Source of the DNA: Candidatus Dojkabacteria bacterium
GTDB taxonomy: Bacteria > Patescibacteriota > Dojkabacteria > JAOAGR01
Direction: 5' to 3'
DNA length: 64,000 nt
NCBI GenBank assembly: GCA_026415655.1
Contig: JAOAGR010000002.1
Coordinates: 64,094 to 128,093 of the forward strand
Below, in pieces: positions 37,826 to 54,089 of the stretch; within the stretch, counting starts at the first letter, position 1; each line of letters opens with the position of its first letter. A model generated the notes under the pieces. That model was given only the letters and a program-made list of their open reading frames with translations. It had not been told where the DNA came from and did no database searches. Position numbers and translations under genes: made by a program.

Positions 37826-40471
37826 ATGGATAATTTTATTAATGAAAATTTTAGTAAAAATGCCATCCAAGCAATCAAAACAGCTATGGATGTATGCGTA
37901 AGAGTAGGAGATTCTTCACTCATGATTGAGCATATTTTTGTTGGGATTTTGCATGTTAAAGAAGGTATTGGAGCAAAGATACTCTCAAGGTTAGGTCTCG
38001 ATCCTGATGCTACTATTACGAGTATAGAACATGAATTGTCCAAAAGAATAGAAGTAGACAATCAGGACAAAAAGGTAGATGTGATTCAGATTACGCTTTC
38101 TGAGAGTGTCAAAGAACTTCTAAGAAGGTCTTATGAAGTAGCATCAGAGATGAATCATCCTTATGTGGGTACTGAGCATATATTGCTGTCTATATTAAAA
38201 TTTTCTGATAATCCGTTTGTACAAGAATTGCATAGATTAGGTATCACCTATGAACGTATTCAAAAAGAGATTGAAGAGTTTGTGACATACCCGGTTTATA
38301 ACCGTGTCAACAATAATTCACAGGTTGATAAACCTGAAAATCAAGACAATAAACAAGTTCCACCAACGCCAAGTATGCCACCATTTATACCGGGAATCGG
38401 AAATATCAATCCTAAGGCTTTATTAAACGATATGATGAAGATGTTTGGAGGTGGGCCAGGCGGATATAGTCCTGAAGGGTCATCTTTTCTAGAAACATAT
38501 GGAAGAAATCTCACTTTAGAAGCTAAAAAAGGTAAATTAGATCCTGTGATTGGTAGAGAGGAAGAAATTTTGAGAGTAATGCAAGTATTAGCTCGCAGGA
38601 CCAAAAATAATCCGATACTACTTGGAGATGCGGGTGTGGGAAAGACTGCTGTGGTTGAGGGGCTAGCTCAATATTTGATCTCTGAAGAGGCATCTCCTGT
38701 GCTTTCTAATTTTGAAATATGGTCCATTGATATTTCATCAATTATTGCTGGATCACAATTGCGTGGTGATGTGGAGGGTAAAATATTAGAGCTCATAAAG
38801 GAAGTTACATCAAAAGGCAATATTATCCTTTTCATAGATGAAATTCATACGATTATGGGGGCTGGTGCAACAACAAATAGTTCATTGGACGTGGCAAATA
38901 TATTAAAACCTGCTCTTGCAAGGGGTACTCTCAGATGTATAGGTGCAACAACCGTTGATGAATACAAACAACATTTTGACAATGATCCAGCTCTGCAACG
39001 TAGATTTATGCCTGTGTACATAGAAGAAATGAGTCCAGAGGATACTTTTGCCATTTTAAAAAATCTAAAGCCAATTTATGAAAATTATCACAACGTACAG
39101 ATAGAAGATAGTGCCCTATGGGCGGCTATAAATCTCACAAATAGATTTATTACAGATAGATATTTACCAGATAAGGCCATCGATGTCATAGATGAGGCTT
39201 GTTCTAAAAATAAAATCGAAAGAATAAAGATACCTAAGAAATTTAGAGAATTAAATGCGCAATTGGCAAATGTACGTTTAGCAAAGTATGATGCTGAAAA
39301 GAATGGTGACATAGATAAGGCAGCAGAACTTTTAAATCAAGAAAAAGAACTTACAAAAAAGATCGAGTCAGAAGCTAAGAAAATGCAGAAAAAATGGAAC
39401 ACGCAAAATAAATCTATAACTGTAAAAGATATAAGAAATATCATTGCAAAATGGAGTAAAGTACCATTGGCTACAGTGAGTGATGATGTGGAAACTTTAA
39501 TCAAAAAATTAGAAAAAGACCTAAGAGACAATGTCATTGGTCAGGACCACGCAGTGGATTTAGTTGTTAGTGCTATCAAAAGATCAAAAGCTGGATTGGC
39601 AGGTTATGATAGACCTTTAGCATCATTTCTTTTTGTTGGTGCCACAGGTGTTGGAAAAACAGAATTAGCAAAACAACTTGCAAAATCACTTTTTGGCTCT
39701 AAAGATGACCTTATACAGGTGGATATGAGTGAGTTTATGGAGTCTCATAGTGTATCAAAGCTTATCGGTTCGCCACCTGGATATGTAGGTTATGATCAGG
39801 GAGGACAATTGACAGATAAAGTACGTGAAAACCCATTTAGCGTGGTGCTATTTGATGAGATAGAAAAGGCGAGTCCTGATGTGTTAAATATACTTTTGCA
39901 AATTTTGGACGAAGGTAAGCTGACTGACAGCAAGGGAAGAACAGTTAATTTTAAAAATACCATAATCATAATGACCTCAAATATCGGTGCCGAGTTTGTA
40001 GGTAAAGATTCAAAAGTTGGTTTTTATCTTAAAAAAAAGGAAGAAACAAAAACTAATAAATATGAAAAAGCTTTGGCAGATATAAAAGAAAGAATTGTTG
40101 AAAGTTTAAAAGAATATTTGTCACCTGAATTTTTAAATCGAATAGATGATATTGTTGTATTTAGAGAATTAAATAAGTCAGATGTTGAAAAAATAACAAA
40201 ATTGCAACTTCAAAATCTTGCGAACAGATTGAAAAAAGAATTAAAAGTAGTTATTAAGAATTATGATTCACCTAAAATTGTTAAAGAAACAACGAGATTA
40301 GGCTATTCTGAAGAATACGGTGCACGTGAATTACGCAGAATTATTACATCCATGATTGAGACCAAAGTAGCTGATTTTATTATCAGCAAAAAATGGGATC
40401 CGGATGCTAAAAATGTTCTAAATATAAAGTTGCAAGTCAAAAACGGATCATTTATTGTAAGTGAAGCATAA
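37826..40471 (+). CDS. ClpC/ClpB-family AAA+ chaperone with ClpP-docking VGF loop and a Pro/Gly-rich insertion
   Basis: Clp_N repeats are present. Two Walker A motifs: 'LLGDAGVGKTAVVEGLA' and '[16 protein letters not shown]'. Short M-domain. 'KVGFYL' at 40016-40024 is an IGF-type ClpP loop. Insertion 'QVPPTPSMPPFIPGIGNINPKALLNDMMKMFGGGPGGYSPEGSS' lies after the N-domain. Confidence 0.85.
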   Translation: MDNFINENFSKNAIQAIKTAMDVCVRVGDSSLMIEHIFVGILHVKEGIGAKILSRLGLDPDATITSIEHELSKRIEVDNQDKKVDVIQITLSESVKELLRRSYEVASEMNHPYVGTEHILLSILKFSDNPFVQELHRLGITYERIQKEIEEFVTYPVYNRVNNNSQVDKPENQDNKQVPPTPSMPPFIPGIGNINPKALLNDMMKMFGGGPGGYSPEGSSFLETYGRNLTLEAKKGKLDPVIGREEEILRVMQVLARRTKNNPILLGDAGVGKTAVVEGLAQYLISEEASPVLSNFEIWSIDISSIIAGSQLRGDVEGKILELIKEVTSKGNIILFIDEIHTIMGAGATTNSSLDVANILKPALARGTLRCIGATTVDEYKQHFDNDPALQRRFMPVYIEEMSPEDTFAILKNLKPIYENYHNVQIEDSALWAAINLTNRFITDRYLPDKAIDVIDEACSKNKIERIKIPKKFRELNAQLANVRLAKYDAEKNGDIDKAAELLNQEKELTKKIESEAKKMQKKWNTQNKSITVKDIRNIIAKWSKVPLATVSDDVETLIKKLEKDLRDNVIGQDHAVDLVVSAIKRSKAGLAGYDRPLASFLFVGATGVGKTELAKQLAKSLFGSKDDLIQVDMSEFMESHSVSKLIGSPPGYVGYDQGGQLTDKVRENPFSVVLFDEIEKASPDVLNILLQILDEGKLTDSKGRTVNFKNTIIIMTSNIGAEFVGKDSKVGFYLKKKEETKTNKYEKALADIKERIVESLKEYLSPEFLNRIDDIVVFRELNKSDVEKITKLQLQNLANRLKKELKVVIKNYDSPKIVKETTRLGYSEEYGARELRRIITSMIETKVADFIISKKWDPDAKNVLNIKLQVKNGSFIVSEA

Positions 40472-42925: not shown

Positions 42926-44163
42926 CTGAATATTTTTTTAATTTCTTTTAATGCGTTAATAAATATATCTATTTCTTCCATAGTATTGTAGAAGCATAAA
43001 GATGCTCTTGCAACAGAATTTACTTTTAGTTCGTTCATAATAATCTGTGTGCAATTATGTCCTGTGCGGATTGCTATACCAAAATCATCAAGTATAGTCC
43101 CTACATCATGGGAGTGTACACCTTCAATATTAAATGAAAATATTGGTAAACGTTTCTTATGACTTTTTGACCCATAAAGTGTCAAAAAATTAATATCTAG
43201 TAACTTTTCCAGCATATATTTTGTAAGTTCTTCTTCGTATACCTTTATATTCTCAACACCGATTGATTGGATAAATTTTATTGATGCGTCGAATGCTATT
43301 ACATCGGCTATATTTGGTGTGCCAGCCTCAAATTTATAGGGAATGTCAGCATAAGTTGTATTTTCTCGTGTTACGGTTTTTATCATATCGCCACCGCCCA
43401 TCAGGGGTGTCATTTCTTGTAATAGAGTTTTTTTTCCTATGAGTATTCCTACTCCTGTTGGTCCTAAACATTTGTGTGCTGAGAATGTAAAGAAATCAGT
43501 ATTAATTTGAGTTATATTAACATCAAAATGCCCACAAGCTTGAGCACCATCCACGATGATAATGGCATCGGGATTTTTTTGTCGGATTTTACGGATTATT
43601 GTTTCAACATCATTTATAGATCCAAAAGTATTTGAAACATAAGAGATGGAAACTATTTTTGTGTTTTGATCCACTTTGTCTACTAGATCATCTATATCAA
43701 TATAACCTTCATTTGTAAACTTAGCATATCTAGTCTCAAATTTGCGGTATTTTCTTAAAATCTGCCATGGAACTATATTAGAATGATGTTCAAGATCAGT
43801 AAGTACGATGTTACTTTCCTCTGTAATCAATTCTATACAACCATAAGCAACTATATTTATACTTTCAGTATCATTTTTAGTAAAAATTATTTCATATTCT
43901 TCAGATACATGAAGAAAATTTTTTATTGTATTGCGTACATTTTCATATTTTTCAGTTGCTTCTTGGGATAATGTGTGCACCCCCCTATGAATATTTGCAT
44001 TATAATTTTCATAATATTCGACTAAAGCATCTATCATTACTCTAGGCTTTTGTGTAGTTGCAGCATTATCAAAATATATTAAATTTTTGCCATTTATTTT
44101 TCTTTTAAGTATTGGAAACTGTTTGCGAATATCTGATACATTAAACATGTTATGATTATACAA
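42922..44163 (-). CDS. sufS: Cysteine desulfurase (class II, SufS/CsdA-like)
   Basis: 'NAATTQKPRVMIDALVEYYENYNANIHRGVHTLS', 'FSAHKCLGPTGVGIL' (PLP Lys) and 'RTGHNCTQ' (persulfide Cys), compared with SufS SGHKxxGPTG and RAGHHCA. Confidence 0.85.
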   Translation of the reverse strand: MYNHNMFNVSDIRKQFPILKRKINGKNLIYFDNAATTQKPRVMIDALVEYYENYNANIHRGVHTLSQEATEKYENVRNTIKNFLHVSEEYEIIFTKNDTESINIVAYGCIELITEESNIVLTDLEHHSNIVPWQILRKYRKFETRYAKFTNEGYIDIDDLVDKVDQNTKIVSISYVSNTFGSINDVETIIRKIRQKNPDAIIIVDGAQACGHFDVNITQINTDFFTFSAHKCLGPTGVGILIGKKTLLQEMTPLMGGGDMIKTVTRENTTYADIPYKFEAGTPNIADVIAFDASIKFIQSIGVENIKVYEEELTKYMLEKLLDINFLTLYGSKSHKKRLPIFSFNIEGVHSHDVGTILDDFGIAIRTGHNCTQIIMNELKVNSVARASLCFYNTMEEIDIFINALKEIKKIFR

Positions 44164-44168
44164 CGATT

Positions 44169-44939
44169 ATGCGCGGAAATATAAAAGCTCTTTTATTCTT
44201 CTTGCAGGATTATAATATAGATTTTGTTCAATATGATAAGAACTTCATTGAGGTAAAGTGTGGTTCCAAGAAGTTACTCTTTATCAACTGTCGTGTGCCT
44301 TTTAATGACCATTCAACATCTTCTCTTTTTACAGATAAGTATTTTACTTATCTATTTCTTAAAGATCACATAAAAATGCCAACTACACATTTTTATCTTG
44401 ATCCTTATATAGAAAAAAAATTCTCTAGATATAGAAAGTTTAAAGATTACCAATCAATAATAGACGACATAAACTCACATTTTACTATTCCTTTAGTATT
44501 GAAGCCCAATAGACTATCAAGGAGAAGAAACTTCTTTTTGATAGATGATTCGGCAAAAATAGAAATAGCCGTTCGACGGATTTTTGATCACAAAAGTAAA
44601 AATTATGATTATGGTATGATATCTCAAGAATTTGTTAATATAAAGGAAGAGTATAGAGTAATTGTTATAGCTAACGAAGTTAAACTTGTATATAAAAAGT
44701 GGAGATTTATCAAGATCCATGAGAGGAATATTTTAGACAGAATAGAAACAGTTGTTCAGAACATTACAAAATTTGTAGATCTAAATTTTGTAGGTATAGA
44801 TATAGTTAAAAATAAAGACGAGGAGATATTTTTATTAGAAATAAATAGTGCACCCGATTTTGGACCGTACATCAAACATAATAATATTCAAGATATAGTA
44901 GAAATTTACAAATTTGCTTTTGAGAAATATGTATTTTAA
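44169..44939 (+). CDS. Stand-alone ATP-grasp domain protein (short)
   Basis: 'PLVLKPNRLSRRRNFFLID', 'QEFVNIKEEYRVIVIANEVKLVYKK' and 'VGIDIVKNKDEEIFLLEINSAPDF' follow the ATP-grasp pattern (VlKP..g..G.gv; Rv.vi.g.vv; vlEvN..Pg). 256 aa. Confidence 0.5.
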   Translation: MRGNIKALLFFLQDYNIDFVQYDKNFIEVKCGSKKLLFINCRVPFNDHSTSSLFTDKYFTYLFLKDHIKMPTTHFYLDPYIEKKFSRYRKFKDYQSIIDDINSHFTIPLVLKPNRLSRRRNFFLIDDSAKIEIAVRRIFDHKSKNYDYGMISQEFVNIKEEYRVIVIANEVKLVYKKWRFIKIHERNILDRIETVVQNITKFVDLNFVGIDIVKNKDEEIFLLEINSAPDFGPYIKHNNIQDIVEIYKFAFEKYVF

Positions 44940-44940
44940 A

Positions 44941-45918
44941 TTATCTGATCGCTTTTTCGAGCACGGGTTTTATACCGATCTCATAATTTTGATTTCCTAC
45001 GATTTTTGCCAACAAATTATATGTTTTGGTTTGGCTGGTTTTGCCATCCAAAGTTTTTGTTGTTACCTCTTTAATTTCGTATAAATAAAAAGTAGGTGTT
45101 CCGGTAGTACCCAAAATGTCACTACTGAACCCAGAAATTTTTCTGACGTGCTCTTCATATTGGCCCGAATTTATACATGATTCAAATTTATTAATATCTA
45201 ATGTTTTGCTTGATTTTATGCTATTAAAATATTCTTTTGCCTTATTTAGATCAAATGCCGTAAAATTTTTATAATATATTGTTTTTAATTCAAAAAATGC
45301 TTTAGCATCCTGTTCTCCAGCACAATATAAAGATGAATGCTTTTTTATATCGCCTAAGCCTTGTTTGTCTATAAAAATATAGGTGAGTTTGCCTGTGATC
45401 AAAAAATCACGGGAGAGTTTTTCAAAACTAGAGTCCCTGTTTTGCTGATATCCATGAAACTTTGCACAATTTATACAATCTAAATCGCTGTTTTCAACAA
45501 ATATATATTTTGCGTTTACGTTGTAAGTAAGTATCGGCTGGCCTTCTAATACACTATTTGTAGAGTCATAGTTTTGTGGTATTTTAAAAGAGTAAAATGC
45601 GTATTTTGGTAATATATAAATTAAATTTTTATATATAACATTATGTAAATTGAAAGCAAAAATAAATGTAACCGATACAATGAGACTGCTAACAATAATA
45701 CTTATGGATACTAATAAATTAAAATTGTACTTAAATTTTTTTAATTTACTTTCAATTCGTGGAAATTTTAAATCAAAACTCTGGAATCTCAGTAGAAGAT
45801 TGTGTATTTGTGATTGTATTCGTTTGATTAGAAGTGGTATCGATCTTTTCATGATATAAATATTTTCTATTATATACTGTTTTAAGAAGAATTTCATTAT
45901 AGGGTTGAGGAAGTACAA
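44941..45918 (-). CDS. Membrane-anchored DsbA-like thiol:disulfide oxidoreductase
   Basis: N-terminal TM segment. 'LDCINCAKFHG' is a CxxC motif. 'TTGTPTFYLYE' is a cis-Pro loop like DsbA's 'V.GTPtf'. Confidence 0.55.
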   Translation of the reverse strand: MYFLNPIMKFFLKQYIIENIYIMKRSIPLLIKRIQSQIHNLLLRFQSFDLKFPRIESKLKKFKYNFNLLVSISIIVSSLIVSVTFIFAFNLHNVIYKNLIYILPKYAFYSFKIPQNYDSTNSVLEGQPILTYNVNAKYIFVENSDLDCINCAKFHGYQQNRDSSFEKLSRDFLITGKLTYIFIDKQGLGDIKKHSSLYCAGEQDAKAFFELKTIYYKNFTAFDLNKAKEYFNSIKSSKTLDINKFESCINSGQYEEHVRKISGFSSDILGTTGTPTFYLYEIKEVTTKTLDGKTSQTKTYNLLAKIVGNQNYEIGIKPVLEKAIR

Positions 45919-46208
45919 TATTAGTCTGTTCTATTAGCTTTGGATCTACTTCAAATTTGCTAGATTGATGAAAAAATTCTGCAGCTATCCATATTATTGA
46001 TCCTACTATTACTATTCCTAAAAATATTGATATGCGCAGTGATATAGATTGCATAATAAATACTAACAATCATGAGTTTATTTTACAAGTATAAAATTTA
46101 TCTTATTGAACTTGCTATCACATTTAACATAAATGCAAGAGTTAAAATGCCGACTAAGATAAAAACAAACAAAAATACTATACGAGTTATATTATTGTTC
46201 ATATAAAT

Positions 46209-47489
46209 TTAAATTTTTATTATCATTCCTTTTTGTTTTGTAGGCGTAGTATAAAATTCTATTTCCGAATTTTCAAATTTTTTAGCTAAATCTATCTCTA
46301 GATGTACAATTGGTACTCTGTTTTTATTACGCGAGTTAGTGTATATGGCATTATTAATAACCAATCTAAAAGTACGACCGTTTTTGTTTTTCATCCCAGA
46401 AAGACTAAAACAATAAACAAAATTGGAATTATTGAAATTAAATAAGGGCTGTGTTTTTATTCCTTCAAATGTCAAGTTGTTAAAATGAACAAATTCTACT
46501 GTGGGAGTGTCTAAGCTGAATTTTAAATAATTCTTATTATCACCAAAAGGAACATTTAGTTTACCCAACCTAACAATATATTGCTTTTCTGCGACTGTAC
46601 CATATGAGGTGAATCTATATGACCCCGGCTGTTGTTTTAACATCGGATCATAAGCGATACTTGCCCTACCAAATAATTTTCTTTTTTCAATAAAGTCCTG
46701 AATTTTATATATTGATTTGTCTAATACAATGTTTGTCGAAGAAAAATTGGATAAGAAAAATTCTGTAAGTATTTCCTCGGTGGCTTGTGGACTGAAAACT
46801 ATCGAGCTGTTTTGTAGATTTGCTGTTTTTACTTCTTTAGATTTTTCAAAGAATTCATAATAGTTTCCCACAAATGATAAAATATCGCTAATCTCCTTTA
46901 GTGATGGTTGATAAGATACTGTGTAACTCCAATTTACTACTTTAGGTATAGTTATTTTTAAATCAAACTTAGTATATATAAATTCTTCAGTTATACCACG
47001 AGAACTGTAGAGATATTTGGTTCCATCTATTACTTCTAGATTATAATCTAAGCGTATATTGAGTATTTTGGCTGTTTCTTCTATTAGTTTTATTATCTTG
47101 AATAAATATTCTGGCTCGTAAATAGAATTTGATAATTGTCTGTCATTACATATAACAAGAGGATAAAGACTTTTTGATGGTATAAATATTTTTTCATTAT
47201 CACAAAGAGATAACCTGTTTTCATAAGCTGTTTCTATCCATTCATCAATTTTGTTCAAATAGGTGTTGTCAACTTCACCTTCAGAATATTCCATATCGTT
47301 CCAAACAATCGTATAGAGACCCTTTGAATTTTCTTCTATTTCTATAGGTTTATTTAAATGATGGTTTTTATCAATTTTGTTGTTGAATTCAACTTTATAA
47401 TATTCATTGTTGTAAAGAACATAATCAACTATCTGCTTTTTAGAAAGTAAATTTTGCAATTTTTGAGCGAGCTTTTCGGTTAAATTCAT
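46209..47489 (-). CDS. Hypothetical protein (426 aa), last gene of a three-gene operon
   Basis: 4-bp overlap with the upstream gene. No motif confidently recognised. A faint TldD/PmbA-like C-terminal impression that I cannot substantiate. Confidence 0.45.
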   Translation of the reverse strand: MNLTEKLAQKLQNLLSKKQIVDYVLYNNEYYKVEFNNKIDKNHHLNKPIEIEENSKGLYTIVWNDMEYSEGEVDNTYLNKIDEWIETAYENRLSLCDNEKIFIPSKSLYPLVICNDRQLSNSIYEPEYLFKIIKLIEETAKILNIRLDYNLEVIDGTKYLYSSRGITEEFIYTKFDLKITIPKVVNWSYTVSYQPSLKEISDILSFVGNYYEFFEKSKEVKTANLQNSSIVFSPQATEEILTEFFLSNFSSTNIVLDKSIYKIQDFIEKRKLFGRASIAYDPMLKQQPGSYRFTSYGTVAEKQYIVRLGKLNVPFGDNKNYLKFSLDTPTVEFVHFNNLTFEGIKTQPLFNFNNSNFVYCFSLSGMKNKNGRTFRLVINNAIYTNSRNKNRVPIVHLEIDLAKKFENSEIEFYTTPTKQKGMIIKI

Positions 47490-48547
47490 ATCAGAGTTGC
47501 TTTGTTTTTGGCTATAGTAAATAAAGTAAATTTATTATTTACGTAAGTTGGATTTGAAATAGATTTGACGATAATGAAATCATAATTTAAGAGATCCATT
47601 TGTTTTCCGTCAAAATAGAAAGTTTCATCAAGTACGATAGTATTGTTTTTTTCTAGATCTACCTCTCTGGATGATATACAAAAAATGACTGGTGTCTTAA
47701 TTGAAATATTTTGGCATATTTCATTGAGATAATCTGTACTATAAAGGAAATCAGGTCTTGCAAGCAATTTTAGATTTATGAAAGACTGATTGTTTTCTTT
47801 ATCGGTACTATAAGAATTCGATGATGTATTAAATATAAGTAGTAAGTAACCGTTTACCTTATTCCTTTTAGATAATTTCTTCTTTTTTTTATTTTGTTTT
47901 ATCTCAATGTATGATAAATGAGTTTCTAACGTGTAGCTTCTGTTTTTGATCAGCCCGGCATCTATGTAGATATTTTTTTTACTAATTAAATTCGAATCTT
48001 TATAGATAAAAATTTCCAAATATATGTGTGATTTACTGTTTGTCGATAGTTGTTTTGAAGATTTTGTGTAATATTGGCAAAGATTATTTTCAATTACTAA
48101 TCTGTATTCGATATTTATATCAGAATTGATATTTGTAATCTGATCTACACTTTTGATTAGTATTTCTTTTAAATACTCAAAATCAGATTTGTCTATGCTT
48201 TGGTTGTTCTGTTCCGGTTCTTCTATATTGATATAAATATTATTTACATAAACTTGCGATGACTTTTTATAAAATTGATAAATGTTTTCGCTATAAGAAT
48301 AAAGTCTTTGTGACAGATCTGCAAGGTGTGTTCTGTCCGATCTATCGTTTAATACTAAATCTTTGTAAGCTTTTGTTAAACATATTCGTTCTTTTGTTTT
48401 GTGATATGACTTAATAATTCGTTTATTTACTGTATGTAAGCTAAAGTTTTCTATTGATTCTACTTTGATATAGATCTGTTTATTTTGGTTGGATTTAGAA
48501 CAGGTTTTAATTATGTAAGGCTTGTGATTGTCATATTGATATATCAT
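47486..48547 (-). CDS. Hypothetical protein (353 aa), middle gene of the operon
   Basis: Asn/Lys/Ser-rich. No recognisable domain. Lies between the PPDK-like gene and the 426-aa gene on the same strand. Confidence 0.45.
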   Translation of the reverse strand: MIYQYDNHKPYIIKTCSKSNQNKQIYIKVESIENFSLHTVNKRIIKSYHKTKERICLTKAYKDLVLNDRSDRTHLADLSQRLYSYSENIYQFYKKSSQVYVNNIYINIEEPEQNNQSIDKSDFEYLKEILIKSVDQITNINSDINIEYRLVIENNLCQYYTKSSKQLSTNSKSHIYLEIFIYKDSNLISKKNIYIDAGLIKNRSYTLETHLSYIEIKQNKKKKKLSKRNKVNGYLLLIFNTSSNSYSTDKENNQSFINLKLLARPDFLYSTDYLNEICQNISIKTPVIFCISSREVDLEKNNTIVLDETFYFDGKQMDLLNYDFIIVKSISNPTYVNNKFTLFTIAKNKATLI

Positions 48548-48653
48548 GATTTATGTAATCTTTAATCATCAGATTATACATGGAAAACATATATACCATC
48601 AATGAAACATAGTAATAATAAATAAGTTGTGAAGTTATTTGAATAATTGACTT

Positions 48654-51545
48654 TTATAACCTCTTGCTTAATTCTTTCTGTTCTAATTCCCTTAGAATTG
48701 TTTTTACTATATCACAATTATTCATACGACATGCTATCTGAGTGAAATTGTTATTAAATACATATTCTGCAACCTCATTCGGTTTTTCAAATCCACTGAT
48801 ATCTAAAATAGAATTATCTTTTAAACTATCTCGTTGTGATAGATATGTGACTAGATTCCGCATACCTTCAACAAATTTTGTTGATGCAGTAAGTTTTTCT
48901 ACACCGAGCATGTTCATCTTTAATCTGAATAGATCATAATAGCGTCCGTCAACAAGCATATCATCAACTACTTCATCTAGTCTAAAAACATTTATCATGC
49001 GTGATACATTTGCATAAATAGAAAAAGTTGATGATCTTTTGAGTCCGATTTTATTTAAAGATTGCTTCATCTGAACAATATCTTTTTTATTTCGATAATC
49101 GGGTAAAATAAGTGAAACATTCTTAAATTTTGATCTTATACTATGTATCTGTGACATGTAATTTACTAAAGCTTGACTTTCATAAGGTGGACATATTACT
49201 AATACTTTTTTTTCTAGACCTATTATTTGTAAATTCTGTAAAAGTAAATTTAGACCCACAGGCATATCTTCTGTAAAAGAAAAAATTACACCATCATAAT
49301 TGGCTAGAGAACTATCGATAACTTCATCTATCAAATGAACATATACTTTTGATATTGTGGGAATAAAATCCAAATATTTTTTATATTTTTTAGGAGTATT
49401 AATTTCATGTATATATGTCTCTTCTAAGTCAAAATTAAATTCTTTACTCTGAGTAGATATTGTATTAAGCTCATAATTGATAGAATCAATTGCTGTTGTT
49501 GCATGTTGTGGATTAACTTCGCTACTTGTTCTAACTAGCTTCTGCAAACTATTGGCCCATAGTTTCGTTTGATCAGATTCGCTGATTCCTTGTACTGCAT
49601 CTAAACTATTATTATTTCCAATATTTTGTGGATCTTTATCTTCAGTTACATAGCTTAATATACTTTCTAAGATACTTTGTTTATCTTCTTTATTTGTTTC
49701 TGCTATATAAATAGAGCTTTCAGAAATATCTGACTTGACATCCGCCTGAATGATATATTCTTTTTCAGGTTCTACTGGTATAGATAGCGATTCACCTTCT
49801 ATACCTTCATTTGTTTGTTTTTCTAATTGGATGGTTAAATCAATCTGGTTTTCTGTGTTCTCTTCTTCAAATGATGCCTGTGATGAAGCTGAGTTATCAA
49901 TAGCTACATTCAAACTTCCAGTATCTGATTCCTCGGTATTTGTTGATAAATTCATTTTTTGGTTATCATTTGCGTTCGGATCAGAAACAAATATACTGCC
50001 ATTGTTAGGATCAATTTTTATTGGTTCTCCTTCTTTTAATAGTCTATTTGCCAAAGGGGCACCGGTAATAACAGGAACTTTAAAGTGTTCATAAAGCCTT
50101 ATTGCTAGTATCTCTGATGGTTCTACTATTATAAAGCCTTTGACTTTTAGATCGGCTCTGATATCTTCAAAACCTTCAAGAATCAAAATACTATCTTCGC
50201 TTGGAGATTCATAATTAAATGTTGCTTTTCCGATAACTGTTGAGTTTCCTCTATAATATTGCCCTTCTATAAGAGGACGTGTTTTGAACACTATGCTGTC
50301 GTTCATATGATTATAGATTACATTTTTTTGGGATTCTTTTCTAGTATTGTTTTCGATTGCGAGATTTTGTGTTGCATTTTTCTCTACCAATGAAATATTT
50401 TCATCAGCATTGATGGCCATATTACTATCTTGTATGGCTGGTAAAACCATCTGAAGAGAAATCTCAGGTTGTTCCGCTGGAGATGTAAATTTATCTTCAT
50501 TTATTTGGGCTAGAAATTCGCTATGTTTTGAACTTAATGTGTGATCTTCTAGTGGTTTAGCTATGGGATTAATTTCGTTTTGGATATATGTAATAGCCAC
50601 ATCTTTTTCTGGTTCTTTTTCAATCTCATCTATTTGAAGATCATTAGGTTCCTTGGGTGTTTGATTACTGACTTCTATTTCTATTTTGTTTATTTCATCG
50701 TCAAAAATAATATCTTCCGTTTTCTTCTTCGGAATGTAATCTATTTGATTGATGTAGTATATCCACATCTTGCCATTATCAAGCATCCAATGTATTTCGT
50801 AATCATTTTGTAGCTCTTCTGATATGATTTTTATAGTTTTAGTTAATGATTTGATGTGTTTATCATCTATTTTCTGTTTTTTTTGCCATGCGACGGAGAC
50901 TTCTATTTGTTTATATGGTAAAGCATCATGCCCACGAATGTACATGAATTTTTGTTCCGTTATGTGCTTTTCAAGAATTTTCTCACTTTCTTTATCTACA
51001 ATATAAGTATCATATTCGATATTTAAATTATTCACAGGTATTCCATAAGCTGCCTCTATAAGTATTGACTCATCAGAGTTATTCAATACATTCTTAGAAA
51101 AAGCATATCCAAATGAATCACAATTATTTGATTTCAATATAAGAATGTTAATTGTTACATCCGAACAACGTTTCAAAACATCTTTTTGCAGGTTATTAAT
51201 AATATCTTCTATTGAGAAGATGATCTTTTGCACACCTTTTACTTGATATACGCATAGATCTTTTATGATTTGACTATTGTCATTAGATTTTACAAAAACG
51301 AAGATGTTGACATATGATTCAGTTAATCCAGATATTGATTCGTATTGATCAATAACTTCTTTGAGAATCGATTCTTTAACTTTTGAATCAACCTCAGTGG
51401 ATAGTTTTGTTATTCCGCTATGGCTGATTATAAATCCATTTGGTATAGGTAGTAGTTCTTTATACAAATCTGATAACAAAACTACCAAGTCAGTAAAATC
51501 TTCATCTGCTTTGATTTTTTCTTGTAGACTGTATACGTGCTTCAT
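48654..51545 (-). CDS. PEP-synthase / pyruvate-phosphate-dikinase / rifampicin-phosphotransferase-like protein: N-terminal PPDK_N ATP-grasp domain, His-less swivel domain, long acidic disordered linker
   Basis: 963 aa. 'LPIPNGFIISHSGITKL' resembles PpsA 'VSVPNGFATTADAF'. 'EIHWMLDNGKMWIYYINQIDYIP' resembles 'DIEWAKDG..GKLFIVQARP'. 'PSEILAIRLYEHFKVPVITGAPLA' sits in the place of the phospho-His motif GGRTSHAAIIARELGIPAVVG, with no His. Residues about 520-700 are D/E/S/N-rich. Confidence 0.55.
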   Translation of the reverse strand: MKHVYSLQEKIKADEDFTDLVVLLSDLYKELLPIPNGFIISHSGITKLSTEVDSKVKESILKEVIDQYESISGLTESYVNIFVFVKSNDNSQIIKDLCVYQVKGVQKIIFSIEDIINNLQKDVLKRCSDVTINILILKSNNCDSFGYAFSKNVLNNSDESILIEAAYGIPVNNLNIEYDTYIVDKESEKILEKHITEQKFMYIRGHDALPYKQIEVSVAWQKKQKIDDKHIKSLTKTIKIISEELQNDYEIHWMLDNGKMWIYYINQIDYIPKKKTEDIIFDDEINKIEIEVSNQTPKEPNDLQIDEIEKEPEKDVAITYIQNEINPIAKPLEDHTLSSKHSEFLAQINEDKFTSPAEQPEISLQMVLPAIQDSNMAINADENISLVEKNATQNLAIENNTRKESQKNVIYNHMNDSIVFKTRPLIEGQYYRGNSTVIGKATFNYESPSEDSILILEGFEDIRADLKVKGFIIVEPSEILAIRLYEHFKVPVITGAPLANRLLKEGEPIKIDPNNGSIFVSDPNANDNQKMNLSTNTEESDTGSLNVAIDNSASSQASFEEENTENQIDLTIQLEKQTNEGIEGESLSIPVEPEKEYIIQADVKSDISESSIYIAETNKEDKQSILESILSYVTEDKDPQNIGNNNSLDAVQGISESDQTKLWANSLQKLVRTSSEVNPQHATTAIDSINYELNTISTQSKEFNFDLEETYIHEINTPKKYKKYLDFIPTISKVYVHLIDEVIDSSLANYDGVIFSFTEDMPVGLNLLLQNLQIIGLEKKVLVICPPYESQALVNYMSQIHSIRSKFKNVSLILPDYRNKKDIVQMKQSLNKIGLKRSSTFSIYANVSRMINVFRLDEVVDDMLVDGRYYDLFRLKMNMLGVEKLTASTKFVEGMRNLVTYLSQRDSLKDNSILDISGFEKPNEVAEYVFNNNFTQIACRMNNCDIVKTILRELEQKELSKRL

Positions 51546-51584
51546 TAATTATTTATGTAGCATATTTCGGGGTTGGTCACAAGA

Positions 51585-51611
51585 TTAGCAGACAGTTGCG
51601 TGGTTTGCTAA
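51585..51611 (+). promoter_or_regulatory. CIRCE-like inverted repeat about 35 bp upstream of the clpC-like gene
   Basis: TTAGCAGAC-AGTTGCGTG-GTTTGCTAA matches CIRCE TTAGCACTC-N9-GAGTGCTAA at 7/9 in each half-site. It has the same variant left arm (TTAGCAGA) as the element upstream of hrcA. Confidence 0.45.
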
Positions 51612-51644
51612 AAATAACTGTTTGTACTACAATATAAATTAACT

Positions 51645-54089
51645 ATGGAAAATTATTTTAGTAATAGTGCTAAACAGGTTTTACAAGAGGCTGCACAGAT
51701 AGCGGTAGAACGTGGTACAACATATATAGACACGGAGCATATTTTATATGCGGCTGTACAGACTGAAATAAATAGAAAGATATTAGAAGAAATAAATAAA
51801 AATCCAGAAACTATTATTGAATATCTAGATAACAACATGCCTACATTTTCTAGAAGATTTTACGGAACCATTACTGCAGACTTAACGCCACGTGCGAAAC
51901 AAACTCTAAATCTTGCTTTTGAATTCGCAAGGGAATTTGGACATGGATATGTAGGTGTGGAACATATTCTTTTAGGAATTTTGGAAGAGAGCGAAGGTTT
52001 TGGAGCACAAGTTTTAAGAAGGTTTGGTATTACAGTTGAGGACTTAAAAAAAGCAATTAAAAAAGTGCTTGGTGAGGGTAGCAAACAAACTACAAAATCA
52101 GACACTCCTACTCTTGACAAGTATTGTCGAGATGTTACAAAACTAGCGCGAGAGGGTAAAATAGATCCGGTTATTGGGCGTAAAAATGAGATTGAAAGAG
52201 TTACTCAGATTCTTTCACGACGAAGAAAAAACAACCCTGTTCTTATTGGAGAACCCGGAGTTGGAAAAACAGCAATCGTGGAAGGATTAGCATTGAAAAT
52301 TGTTCAGGGGAACGTTCCAGATGTACTGCAGGATAAACGCGTTTTGGCTTTGGATATGGGATTGCTTATTGCTGGAACCAAATATCAAGGTGAATTCGAA
52401 GAAAGAGTAACTAAAATCATAAAAGAGTTACAATCATCTGGCGGAAATATAATTCTCTTCTTGGATGAATTACACACTATTGTTGGAGCCGGAGCAGCTG
52501 AGGGAAAAACTGATCTATCTAATCTTCTCAAACCCGCATTAGCAAGGGGAGAATTGCAAGCCATCGGTGCAACGACATTAATAGAATATAAAAAGTATAT
52601 AGAAAAAGATCCAGCGCTAGAAAGGAGATTTCAACCTGTTATTGTCTTGGAACCAACAGTCGAAGATGCAATACAAATATTAAAGGGATTAAGAGATAAA
52701 TACGAAGCACATCATAAAATTCAGATTTCTGATGAAGCAATAGAAGCCGCTGTAAATTTAAGCGTCAAATATATAAGTGACAGGTTTTTACCCGATAAAG
52801 CCTTAGATGTACTTGATGAAGCGGCATCAATGCTTAGACTTAAAACTATAAATGAGCCTGAACCGATTAGAAATATAAAACAAAAAATATCTGATTTAGA
52901 AAGGGAGAGAGAAGCCTTAACGCGTTCTAGAGAGTATGAAAAAGCAGCATTAGTGAAACAAGAAATTGAAAAATTGAAGGGTGAACTTCAACCATTAGAG
53001 GAAGAGTGGTTGAAAACAAGGGGTACCGGTACCCCAATATTAGGCGTAAATGAAATTGCAGAAGTAGTCTCAAATATGACCGGTATACCAGCAAATAAGA
53101 TTAATAAACAGGAAAAAGAGATACTAGCAAATTTAGAACAACTTTTACATAAGCGTGTTGTTGGGCAGGACAAAGCAGTAAGTGCTGTTGCCGATGCCGT
53201 ACGTAGATCTAGATTAGGTTTATCTGATGAAAAAAGGCCAATTGCATCATTTCTATTTGTTGGACCTACCGGTGTTGGAAAAACAGAACTGGCAAAAGCT
53301 CTTGCCGAAAATTTGTTTGGGCATGAGTCAAATCTCATACGTATAGATATGAGTGAATATATGGAGAAACATTCTGTTGCTCGTTTGATTGGTGCTCCGC
53401 CAGGTTATGTTGGTTATGAGGAAGGTGGACAGTTAACGGAAAAGGTGAGACGTAAGCCGTATTCTGTCATATTGTTAGACGAGATAGAAAAGGCACATCC
53501 TGATGTGGCCAATATACTTTTACAAATTTTAGAAGATGGACGTTTAACCGATGGACATGGGAGAACGGTTAATTTTAGAAATACCATAATTATTGCTACT
53601 TCAAATATCGCTTCAAATCAAATTTTTGAATACTATGAGAAGCAAATGAAAAACAGTAATGAAAAACCAGAAAGTACTATTTTGAAATTTAAAGAGAATG
53701 AAGAAGATAAGAAGGATATTGAGTCTGTTGTAATTAATGCTTTGAAAAATGTTTTTCGTGTTGAATTGATAAATAGGTTTGATGATATCATCATCTTTGA
53801 ACCACTTAGTAAAGACATAATAAACCAAATTGTCAGACTACATCTTGATAGATTAGTAGAAAAATTGGCAAGAAATGAAATAAAACTGTCTTATTCAGCT
53901 GAGATTGTTGAATATATAGCTGATAAGAGTTACAATCCGCGATTTGGTGCAAGAGAAGTCCGTAGATTTATACAAAAAAATGTGGAAAATCTGATTTCTA
54001 ACTATTTGATATCCCAAGACTCGAATATAAATCTAGATCTAAGTTTGACAATTGAAAACGATCAGATAAATGTAGTACCAAAAAATTAA
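51645..54089 (+). CDS. clpC: ATP-dependent Clp protease ATP-binding subunit ClpC-like (UVR-type M-domain, no obvious ClpP loop)
   Basis: 814 aa. Clp_N repeats. '[17 protein letters not shown]' and '[19 protein letters not shown]'. M-domain '[38 protein letters not shown]' is UVR-like. The region after '[13 protein letters not shown]' lacks a GF tripeptide. Confidence 0.85.

Follow-up and report, generated by a model that had tools for sequence, protein, structure and literature searches.

A stretch of 64,000 nucleotides from contig JAOAGR010000002.1 of a Candidatus Dojkabacteria bacterium (the window, numbered here from its first letter) carries three genes, g1, g2, and g3, the first of which encodes a relative of the phosphoenolpyruvate (PEP) synthase PpsA. 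We propose that g1 is a PpsA-derived protein that has kept the three-domain fold, lost dikinase chemistry, and had its C-terminal barrel repurposed, and that in the main clade of relatives it is used with g2 and g3; we place the probability of this reading at roughly 0.6. Selection now falls chiefly on the TIM barrel at the C terminus and on the swivel, and the old PEP/Mg2+ pocket has been rebuilt with an invariant polar and basic set of residues (Y788/E789, D816-K820, N846/S848, and D871/R874/K876). The barrel would most likely bind a ligand or a partner or house a new catalytic site that needs no metal, and the ATP-grasp and swivel domains would hang from it by long, acidic, disordered tethers. 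Bacteria of the main clade probably produce g1 along with g2 and g3 and use the three jointly, g2 and g3 being a putative TldD/TldE-like pair without the metalloprotease motif that could act as a nonproteolytic shell or a peptide binder, possibly in a physical complex with g1. The conserved neighbors are proteostasis genes, namely, a ClpC-type unfoldase, a DsbA-like protein, and, in some relatives, HrcA.

Fold and catalytic residues of g1

A preliminary description, made from the sequence alone, had placed three genes here, and all three were recovered at the given coordinates as minus-strand open reading frames (ORFs) of 963, 353, and 426 amino acids (aa) (Table 1). The only Pfam domain found in g1 was PPDK_N (PF01326; residues 129 to 263; E = 8.9e-15), and residues 23 to 264 of the family profile aligned with PpsA residues 28 to 315 at an hhalign probability of 99%, in agreement with the ATP-grasp domain recognized at the outset. 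Swivel residues 421 to 524 aligned with PpsA residues 355 to 465, at the expected position (hhalign E = 2e-4), and the family hidden Markov model (HMM) ran continuously through the swivel into the related proteins P0025 and P0026, both of which are above the Pfam threshold for PF00391. Pfam alone gave E = 0.05 for the swivel, in 2 of 15 family members. Residues 725 to 961 were collinear with PpsA residues 476 to 771 (hhalign E = 5e-5), and the family HMM matched the C-terminal domains of PpsA-like proteins at 47 to 68 bits; one of these was P0127 (residues 575 to 651), whose C-terminal domain (453 to 739) carries PF02896. PF02896 was not detected when Pfam was run directly on the C-terminal domain of the g1 family.

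An AlphaFold2 (AF2) model of g1, built on the 15-sequence family alignment, contained three confident domains, with predicted local distance difference test (pLDDT) values of ~80 for residues 30 to 270, ~85 for residues 417 to 526, and 85 to 92 for residues 725 to 963; residues 270 to 416 and 527 to 654 fell below 40. When the model was compared with the PDB by Foldseek, the N-terminal domain best matched the ATP-grasp domain of rifampin phosphotransferase (RPH) (5hv3; E = 2.7e-16), and matches were also obtained to full-length Neisseria meningitidis PpsA (E = 3.3e-15) and to PPDK (E = 1.5e-9). The barrel matched the isolated PpsA PEP-binding domains 9dae_A and 8a8e_A at a TMt of ~0.6 and, more distantly, HpaI/HpcH aldolases, which belong to the same barrel superfamily. 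A match to Bacillus stearothermophilus pyruvate kinase (2e28) presumably lies on the swivel-like C-terminal domain of that enzyme. The C-terminal domain had been described as having no clear TIM-barrel signature, a statement that the eight beta-alpha units of the model and the Foldseek, HMM, and hhalign matches to the PpsA barrel overturn. A disordered segment of about 180 aa had been proposed at residues 521 to 701; residues 527 to 654 are indeed predicted to be disordered and are acidic, but residues 655 to 716 are helical and partly conserved, and a second disordered linker at residues 271 to 416 had been missed. We conclude that g1 is homologous to PpsA over all three domains, as judged from sequence profiles and the predicted structure.

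The sequence "PSEILAIRL," encoded at positions 50094 to 50120, aligned with the "TSHAAI" helix of PpsA, as had been proposed. The position of the phospho-His (His421 in Escherichia coli PpsA) is occupied by Leu480 (codon 50106 to 50108), an assignment counted from the conserved "[IV]P" that comes after the helix and on which hhalign, hmmalign, and MAFFT agree. The column is Leu in all 14 family members that cover the region, and the suggested search for a catalytic His elsewhere found no invariant or nearly invariant His anywhere in the 15-sequence family alignment.

Replacement extends to the barrel and to the ATP-grasp domain. Six E. coli PpsA residues, R511, R578, E680, N703, D704, and C751, which are the PEP, pyruvate, and Mg2+ ligands and the catalytic Cys, fit the canonical motifs of aligned PpsA sequences, and all six are replaced in g1: R511 has no basic counterpart, and the others align with I784, S848, F873, R874, and either I916 or S917, respectively. 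About 35 aa of the PEP-binding loop ("FKSNEY...NPMLGFRG") are deleted. D871 was considered as a retained Mg-ligand Asp and was dropped, as the ungapped alignment sets E. coli D704 opposite R874. In alignments with E. coli and other canonical PpsA sequences, the Lys of the ATP-grasp GGK motif corresponds to L20, the Arg of VRSS to F82, the D-I-E pair to E250 and H252, and the Q-x-R pair to Y264 and N266, such that five of the six residues checked are replaced and the last has changed from D to E. In the PPDK literature, nucleotide and Mg binding is assigned to these positions (Lys, Arg, D-x-E, and Q-x-R); PDB entries of K22A and R337A mutants were among the Foldseek matches. Across the family, D-x-E has become Q/x-x-N/I/T and Q-x-R has become N/F-x-I/A. 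The alignments thus indicate that residues for each step of the ATP-to-His-to-pyruvate phosphoryl relay are replaced, not only the His, and the earlier statement that phosphate could not be shuttled by the known route was, if anything, understated. Because residues for every relay step appear to be lost, g1 would not be a PEP synthase or dikinase. We are confident, on the basis of sequence, that it would be unable to perform dikinase chemistry.

One alternative, in line with the earlier suggestion of transfer to something else, is that g1 remains active as an ATP-dependent phosphotransferase or ligase, with direct transfer from the ATP-grasp domain to a new substrate in place of the route through the swivel His, as in ATP-grasp ligases, and that the TldD/E-like pair processes its product or a peptide substrate. 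In keeping with such an enzyme, the ATP-grasp fold is retained with good model confidence and 38% mean pairwise identity, a shifted G-K and a counterpart of the "VRSS" Arg persist in most of the family beyond the window clade, the best NCBIfam match of g1 is of the PigC/RedH type (45 bits, against a cutoff of 1300), and TldD/E are established to act on peptides in E. coli. The nucleotide- and Mg-site residues K, R, E, Q, and R are nevertheless L20, F82, H252, Y264, and N266 in g1, the D-x-E and Q-x-R motifs are lost across the family, the ATP-grasp domain is less conserved than the barrel, and at locus L004 it is a separate ORF; we consider continued enzymatic activity of this kind improbable. 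RPH and the prodigiosin ligases PigC and RedH share the ATP-grasp-plus-swivel architecture with g1, but they keep the swivel His that g1 lacks. RPH also has a dedicated rifampin-binding domain, whereas the C-terminal domain of g1 matches the PEP-binding TIM barrel of PpsA and PPDK. Compared with PpsA and PPDK themselves, g1 has the PPDK_N ATP-grasp, swivel, and PEP-utilizers_C barrel in the same order but differs in the Leu at the phospho-His position, the replaced Mg, PEP, and pyruvate ligands and catalytic Cys, the loop deletion, the two long disordered acidic linkers that have been inserted, and new barrel motifs.

We note that g1 is split within linker 1 at L004 (5726 to 8631), yielding two ORFs with a 4-bp overlap, one for the ATP-grasp domain (377 aa) and one for the swivel and barrel (591 aa). 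The split may be either a true two-gene version or an assembly frameshift.

Proteins of the g1 type carry PPDK_N and would be annotated "PEP synthase." PEP synthase has been proposed as a pyruvate kinase substitute that closes lower glycolysis in the candidate phyla radiation, and Dojkabacteria have been noted for minimal metabolism (PMC7304191). A pyruvate kinase substitution assigned to g1-type proteins would be misleading, given that the catalytic residues of all three centers are replaced. We suggest leaving g1 out of any count of metabolic enzymes; its role is probably a new one and non-kinase.

Conservation of g1 and of related His-less proteins

The g1 family was defined by an HMMER search over 1.84 billion representative proteins with a threshold of E ≤ 1e-80. 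It comprises 13 clusters, and the next PpsA-like proteins follow only after a sharp drop in score, from 287 to 125 bits. Between lineages g1 is 30 to 45% identical, and the ORFs remain full length. The TIM barrel is the most conserved region, with 48% mean pairwise identity and 46 of 239 columns invariant, followed by the swivel (47%), the ATP-grasp domain, and the helical segment at residues 655 to 716 (33%). In or next to that segment, V651, G653, A682, and S700 are nearly invariant and E702 and D706 invariant in the family alignment. Neither linker has an invariant column: linker 1 averages 15% identity and ranges from 18 to 146 aa in length, and linker 2 averages 20% and ranges from 67 to 269 aa.

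The residues that are invariant in the barrel make up new motifs (PPYE, PDYRNK, NVSRxINVFR, and DGxYxDLFRLKMNMLG) and, in the AF2 model, lie directly after predicted strands beta3 to beta7. The C-terminal ends of the strands are the face that bears TIM-barrel active sites, the PEP site included. The functional core of g1 is therefore probably a rebuilt, Arg/Lys-rich barrel pocket, as the model suggests. This pocket may bind a ligand, a partner protein, or the acidic tethers, or it may catalyze a new reaction, and the new invariant residues at the old active site offer a defined pocket for experiments.

Loss of catalytic residues in all three proteins of the locus, together with the extreme divergence of g2 and its shortening in the window clade, would also be expected of decaying in-frame relics of PpsA and TldD/E, functionless in a shrinking genome. 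Such relics would hardly retain intact ORFs of ~960 aa across lineages only 30 to 45% identical, or 46 invariant barrel columns forming new motifs, and the module has been kept in a complete genome of 738 kb; we give decay almost no credence. We conclude with confidence that the sequence pattern reflects purifying selection on g1 centered on the barrel and swivel, not decay. As a case of pseudoenzyme evolution, g1 combines the loss of all three active centers with strong selection in a 0.7-Mb genome.

The nearest relatives outside the family, P0025 to P0161 of the representative-protein search, are metagenomic. Of the 126 representatives of 600 aa or more that scored next best, 115 matched none of the simple patterns for the His motif, GxND, and CG[EQ]. 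In the 90 proteins whose swivel match was clear, the His column was Asp in 33, His in 13, a gap in 10, Pro in 6, and Glu in 5, with other residues in the remainder; replacements in this wider group include Asp, Glu, and Gln. Most of P0025 to P0161 also lack the GGK, VRSS, GxND, and CG[EQ] motifs, and the Asp type reads "GGxTSD." Because its nearest relatives are mostly without the His too, His loss is not unique to the g1 family. Two such types, P0057/P0074 (the "GGxTSD" type) and P0025/P0026, resemble g1 in having PPDK_N and PF00391, a replaced His, and degenerate barrel motifs, but they have Asp rather than Leu, no long linkers, and other barrel motifs. A literature search found no description of His-less PpsA-like proteins or of a PpsA-TldD/E link, and the wider group is apparently undescribed. 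We conclude that the g1 family is set apart by its Leu, its long tethers, its own barrel motifs, and its TldE-like neighbors.

The g2-g3 pair and its linkage to g1

Both g2 and g3 had been described as belonging to no recognizable family, which held for g2 and failed for g3. The g3 protein matched PmbA_TldD_3rd (PF19289) above the cutoff (E = 4.3e-8), and the g3 family profile matched the PmbA homologue 1vpb in the PDB (E = 1.3e-3). Neither a conserved HExxxH motif nor an invariant His or Cys was found in the g2 or g3 family, and g3 itself has no HExxxH. TldE/PmbA is the subunit without the zinc site, and the lack of HExxxH in g3 therefore fits a subunit of the TldE/PmbA type.

Homologues of g2, 372 to 469 aa long, lie between g1 and g3 at every locus and are 15 to 19% identical between lineages; g2 is shortened to 353 aa in the window clade. 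A database entry 100% identical to g2 comes from a metagenome-assembled genome of Candidatus Dojkabacteria, where it is named a hypothetical protein. No significant match to g2 was obtained in Pfam or NCBIfam (nine homologues and a consensus) or in the PDB (single sequence and family profile), and an AF2 model made with three close homologues had a pLDDT of 37 and gave only noise in Foldseek. The g2 consensus weakly matched PF01523 (domain 1) at the expected N-terminal position (E = 0.2). End-to-end collinear alignment of the g2 and g3 families gave an hhalign score of 25.9 at a probability of only 2%; 40 column shuffles scored 16.0 ± 2.2 (maximum, 20.8), the reversed profile scored 16.4, and confidence was confined to the last ~70 columns. 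Comparison of g2 with g3 and with E. coli TldD/E by hhalign gave E values of 0.025 to 0.3, with little power, as the g3 positive control did no better (E = 0.025). The HExxxH-type sequence HENAPH in the L004 homologue of g2 was considered as a TldD zinc site and rejected, as it is not conserved in other lineages. Because of its size, its translational coupling to g3, the weak PF01523 match, and the collinear alignment, g2 might at best be a very remote PmbA/TldD-type paralogue of g3.

The arrangement recalls E. coli TldD/TldE (PmbA) in that two adjacent genes, encoding ~430 aa in most relatives, are translationally coupled, in that g3 has the PmbA_TldD third domain, and in that g2 is weakly collinear with g3. 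It differs from TldD/TldE in having no conserved HExxxH, a motif that reads HEAVGH in E. coli TldD (residue 262), and in being linked to a PpsA-like gene; we know of no such link described for TldD/E. The gene overlaps of 4 bp reported earlier were half right: the end of g2 and the beginning of g3 share 4 bp (47486 to 47489), the sole such overlap, but g1 and g2 do not overlap and are 106 bp apart (48548 to 48653).

The three genes are present together in the window, in L001 to L004, in a JGI contig, and in L008 to L011, L015, and L016; L007 ends after g2. In L001 to L003, where g1 is 77% identical, synteny is complete over 20 kb of housekeeping genes. In the deeper relatives (the JGI contig, L004, L008 to L011, L015, and L016), g3 is ~30% identical and ClpC 60 to 69%, and ClpC stands beside g1-g2-g3 wherever the contig reaches. 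ClpC lies upstream and divergent in L001, L004, L008, L009, L010, L011, and L016. L011 comes from a complete genome of 738 kb (AP026679.1), which would be expected to hold little dispensable DNA. A g3-based search recovered only loci that also hold g1 and g2. The proposal that the three genes co-occur as a unit was thus borne out at every main-clade locus examined and not in the sister branch P0021/P0023, where g2 and g3 do not adjoin g1.

Several observations weigh against joint use of the three proteins and against the loss of function proposed for g1. The divergent P0021/P0023 branch also lacks ClpC, the g1-g2 gap holds a promoter-like match (albeit no better than chance), and all examples come from one bacterial class, in which synteny may be simple inheritance. 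The interaction of g1, g2, and g3 is read from gene order, and support for g2 in the TldD/PmbA fold is weak. The catalytic-residue assignments derive from alignments at 15 to 25% identity and from the AF2 model of 15 sequences, and the G-K and Arg kept outside the window clade may mean that those members retain residual nucleotide binding.

Some of these points would suit an account in which there is no three-gene system, g1 and the g2/g3 pair being functionally unrelated and their adjacency inherited within Dojkabacteria. ClpC, and GatB at several loci, are equally syntenic, and no TldD/E neighbors were found at the two other His-less PpsA-like loci examined (P0025 and P0074). We regard this account as unlikely, yet deserving of real weight. 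Against it, gene order and adjacency are constant at all main-clade loci while the outer flanks change, every g3 homologue found adjoins g1 and g2, and the three genes have evolved faster than their flanks, as seen in the identities of g1, g3, and g2 set against that of ClpC. Our favored reading, in which g1 acts with the TldE-like pair in a proteostasis-flavored neighborhood, is held on this point with low to moderate confidence.

Flanking genes and layout of the locus

The flanks of the module are housekeeping genes (ClpC, GatB, YidC, S20, and RNase HII), and the outer flanks vary between loci through insertions, HrcA, MutS, and other genes. An anti-phage defense or other mobile accessory system was considered, a check for a defense-island-like context having been proposed at the outset, and the general look of a multigene module of unfamiliar proteins is all that speaks for it. 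PADLOC gave no match for the six proteins scanned, no mobile-element genes adjoin the module, the GC content of g1-g2-g3 matches the surroundings in an AT-rich window of about 30% GC, and the housekeeping flanks are fixed in all relatives. The defense reading is effectively refuted by gene context, and we assign it a negligible probability.

The ClpC gene is divergent from g1 and 99 bp away. A more specific proposal is that the relay-less PpsA and the zinc-less TldD/E-like shell have been recruited into a new machine, noncatalytic or newly catalytic, that works with ClpC in protein or peptide handling, e.g., as an adaptor or gate whose switch would consist of the basic pocket of the barrel and the disordered acidic tethers. 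We advance this as a speculative and rather improbable elaboration. Beyond the 3' end of g3 come a small membrane ORF and a thioredoxin_4/DsbA-like gene and, on the opposite strand, a RimK-like ATP-grasp gene; the last two had been correctly anticipated. The thioredoxin-like gene lies 3' of the module in L004, L008, L009, L011, L015, and L016 and is absent in L010. The small membrane ORF, predicted to be single pass, is present in L001 to L003 and has a weak homologue in L016 (E = 8e-6). Both products are possible accessory parts.

Rfam scanning of positions 44000 to 52500 found no RNA elements, and promoter and terminator matches were not more frequent than in shuffled sequence. No terminator-like site was found in the g1-g2 gap, where the sole promoter-like match was no better than chance when compared with shuffles. 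The positions of all features are collected in Table 1.

Table 1. Genes of the locus and domains of g1, in window coordinates
Feature	Position	Strand	Description	Basis
g1	48654..51545	-	963 aa; PpsA (PEP synthase) paralogue of three domains, without canonical catalytic residues	ORF
g1 ATP-grasp (PPDK_N), residues ~20-270	50736..51488	-		hhalign, PpsA alignment, pLDDT ~80
g1 linker 1, residues 271-416	50298..50735	-	Acidic, predicted disordered	pLDDT <40, net charge -16
g1 swivel (PEP-utilizers-like), residues 417-526	49968..50297	-		hhalign, HMM, pLDDT ~85
g1 linker 2, residues 527-654	49584..49967	-	Acidic, predicted disordered	pLDDT 23-40, net charge -21
g1 helical segment before barrel, residues 655-716	49398..49583	-	Three predicted helices	pLDDT 53-69
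g1 C-terminal (beta/alpha)8 barrel, residues 725-963	48657..49373	-		AF2, Foldseek, hhalign, HMM
g2	47486..48547	-	353 aa; fast evolving, no family match	ORF
g3	46209..47489	-	426 aa; PmbA/TldE-like, without HExxxH metal site	ORF
Small predicted membrane protein	45773..46069	-	~93-98 aa; between g3 and the thioredoxin-like gene	ORF list, relatives
Thioredoxin_4/DsbA-like protein	44941..45918	-	3' of module	Pfam E = 1.5e-12
RimK/LysX-like stand-alone ATP-grasp gene	44169..44939	+	256 aa; beside SufS gene	Library matches
ClpC-type Hsp100 ATPase	51645..54089	+	814 aa	Pfam Clp_N (two), AAA, AAA_2, ClpB_D2-small

The thioredoxin-like ORF as listed (325 aa, with a TTG start) overlaps the small membrane ORF. 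Its true start is probably near 45685, the listed ORF being too long, because the orthologues are only 247 to 289 aa.

The RimK-like ATP-grasp gene was found in L001 to L003 and was not detected in the deeper relatives; it probably lies outside the module. The HrcA heat-shock repressor gene and mutS were found just 3' of the module in L004 (13484 to 14218) and in the P0011 JGI contig, and HrcA would add to the proteostasis flavor of the surroundings.

In the P0021/P0023 branch (L019, 6386 to 7768; L020, 10590 to 11972), two unrelated membrane proteins, conserved as a pair, are encoded after g1; one is ~190 aa long, has several transmembrane helices, and is 73% identical between the loci, and the other is ~240 to 270 aa long and has an N-terminal anchor. 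Upstream of g1 in this branch, LepA and an ABC ATPase take the place of ClpC.

On its plus strand, the window encodes two paralogous Hsp100/Clp ATPases less than 14 kb apart, one of 881 aa (37826 to 40471) and the 814-aa ClpC-like protein. Both genes fall in regions with a GC content of 0.36, compared with 0.28 to 0.31 in the surroundings.

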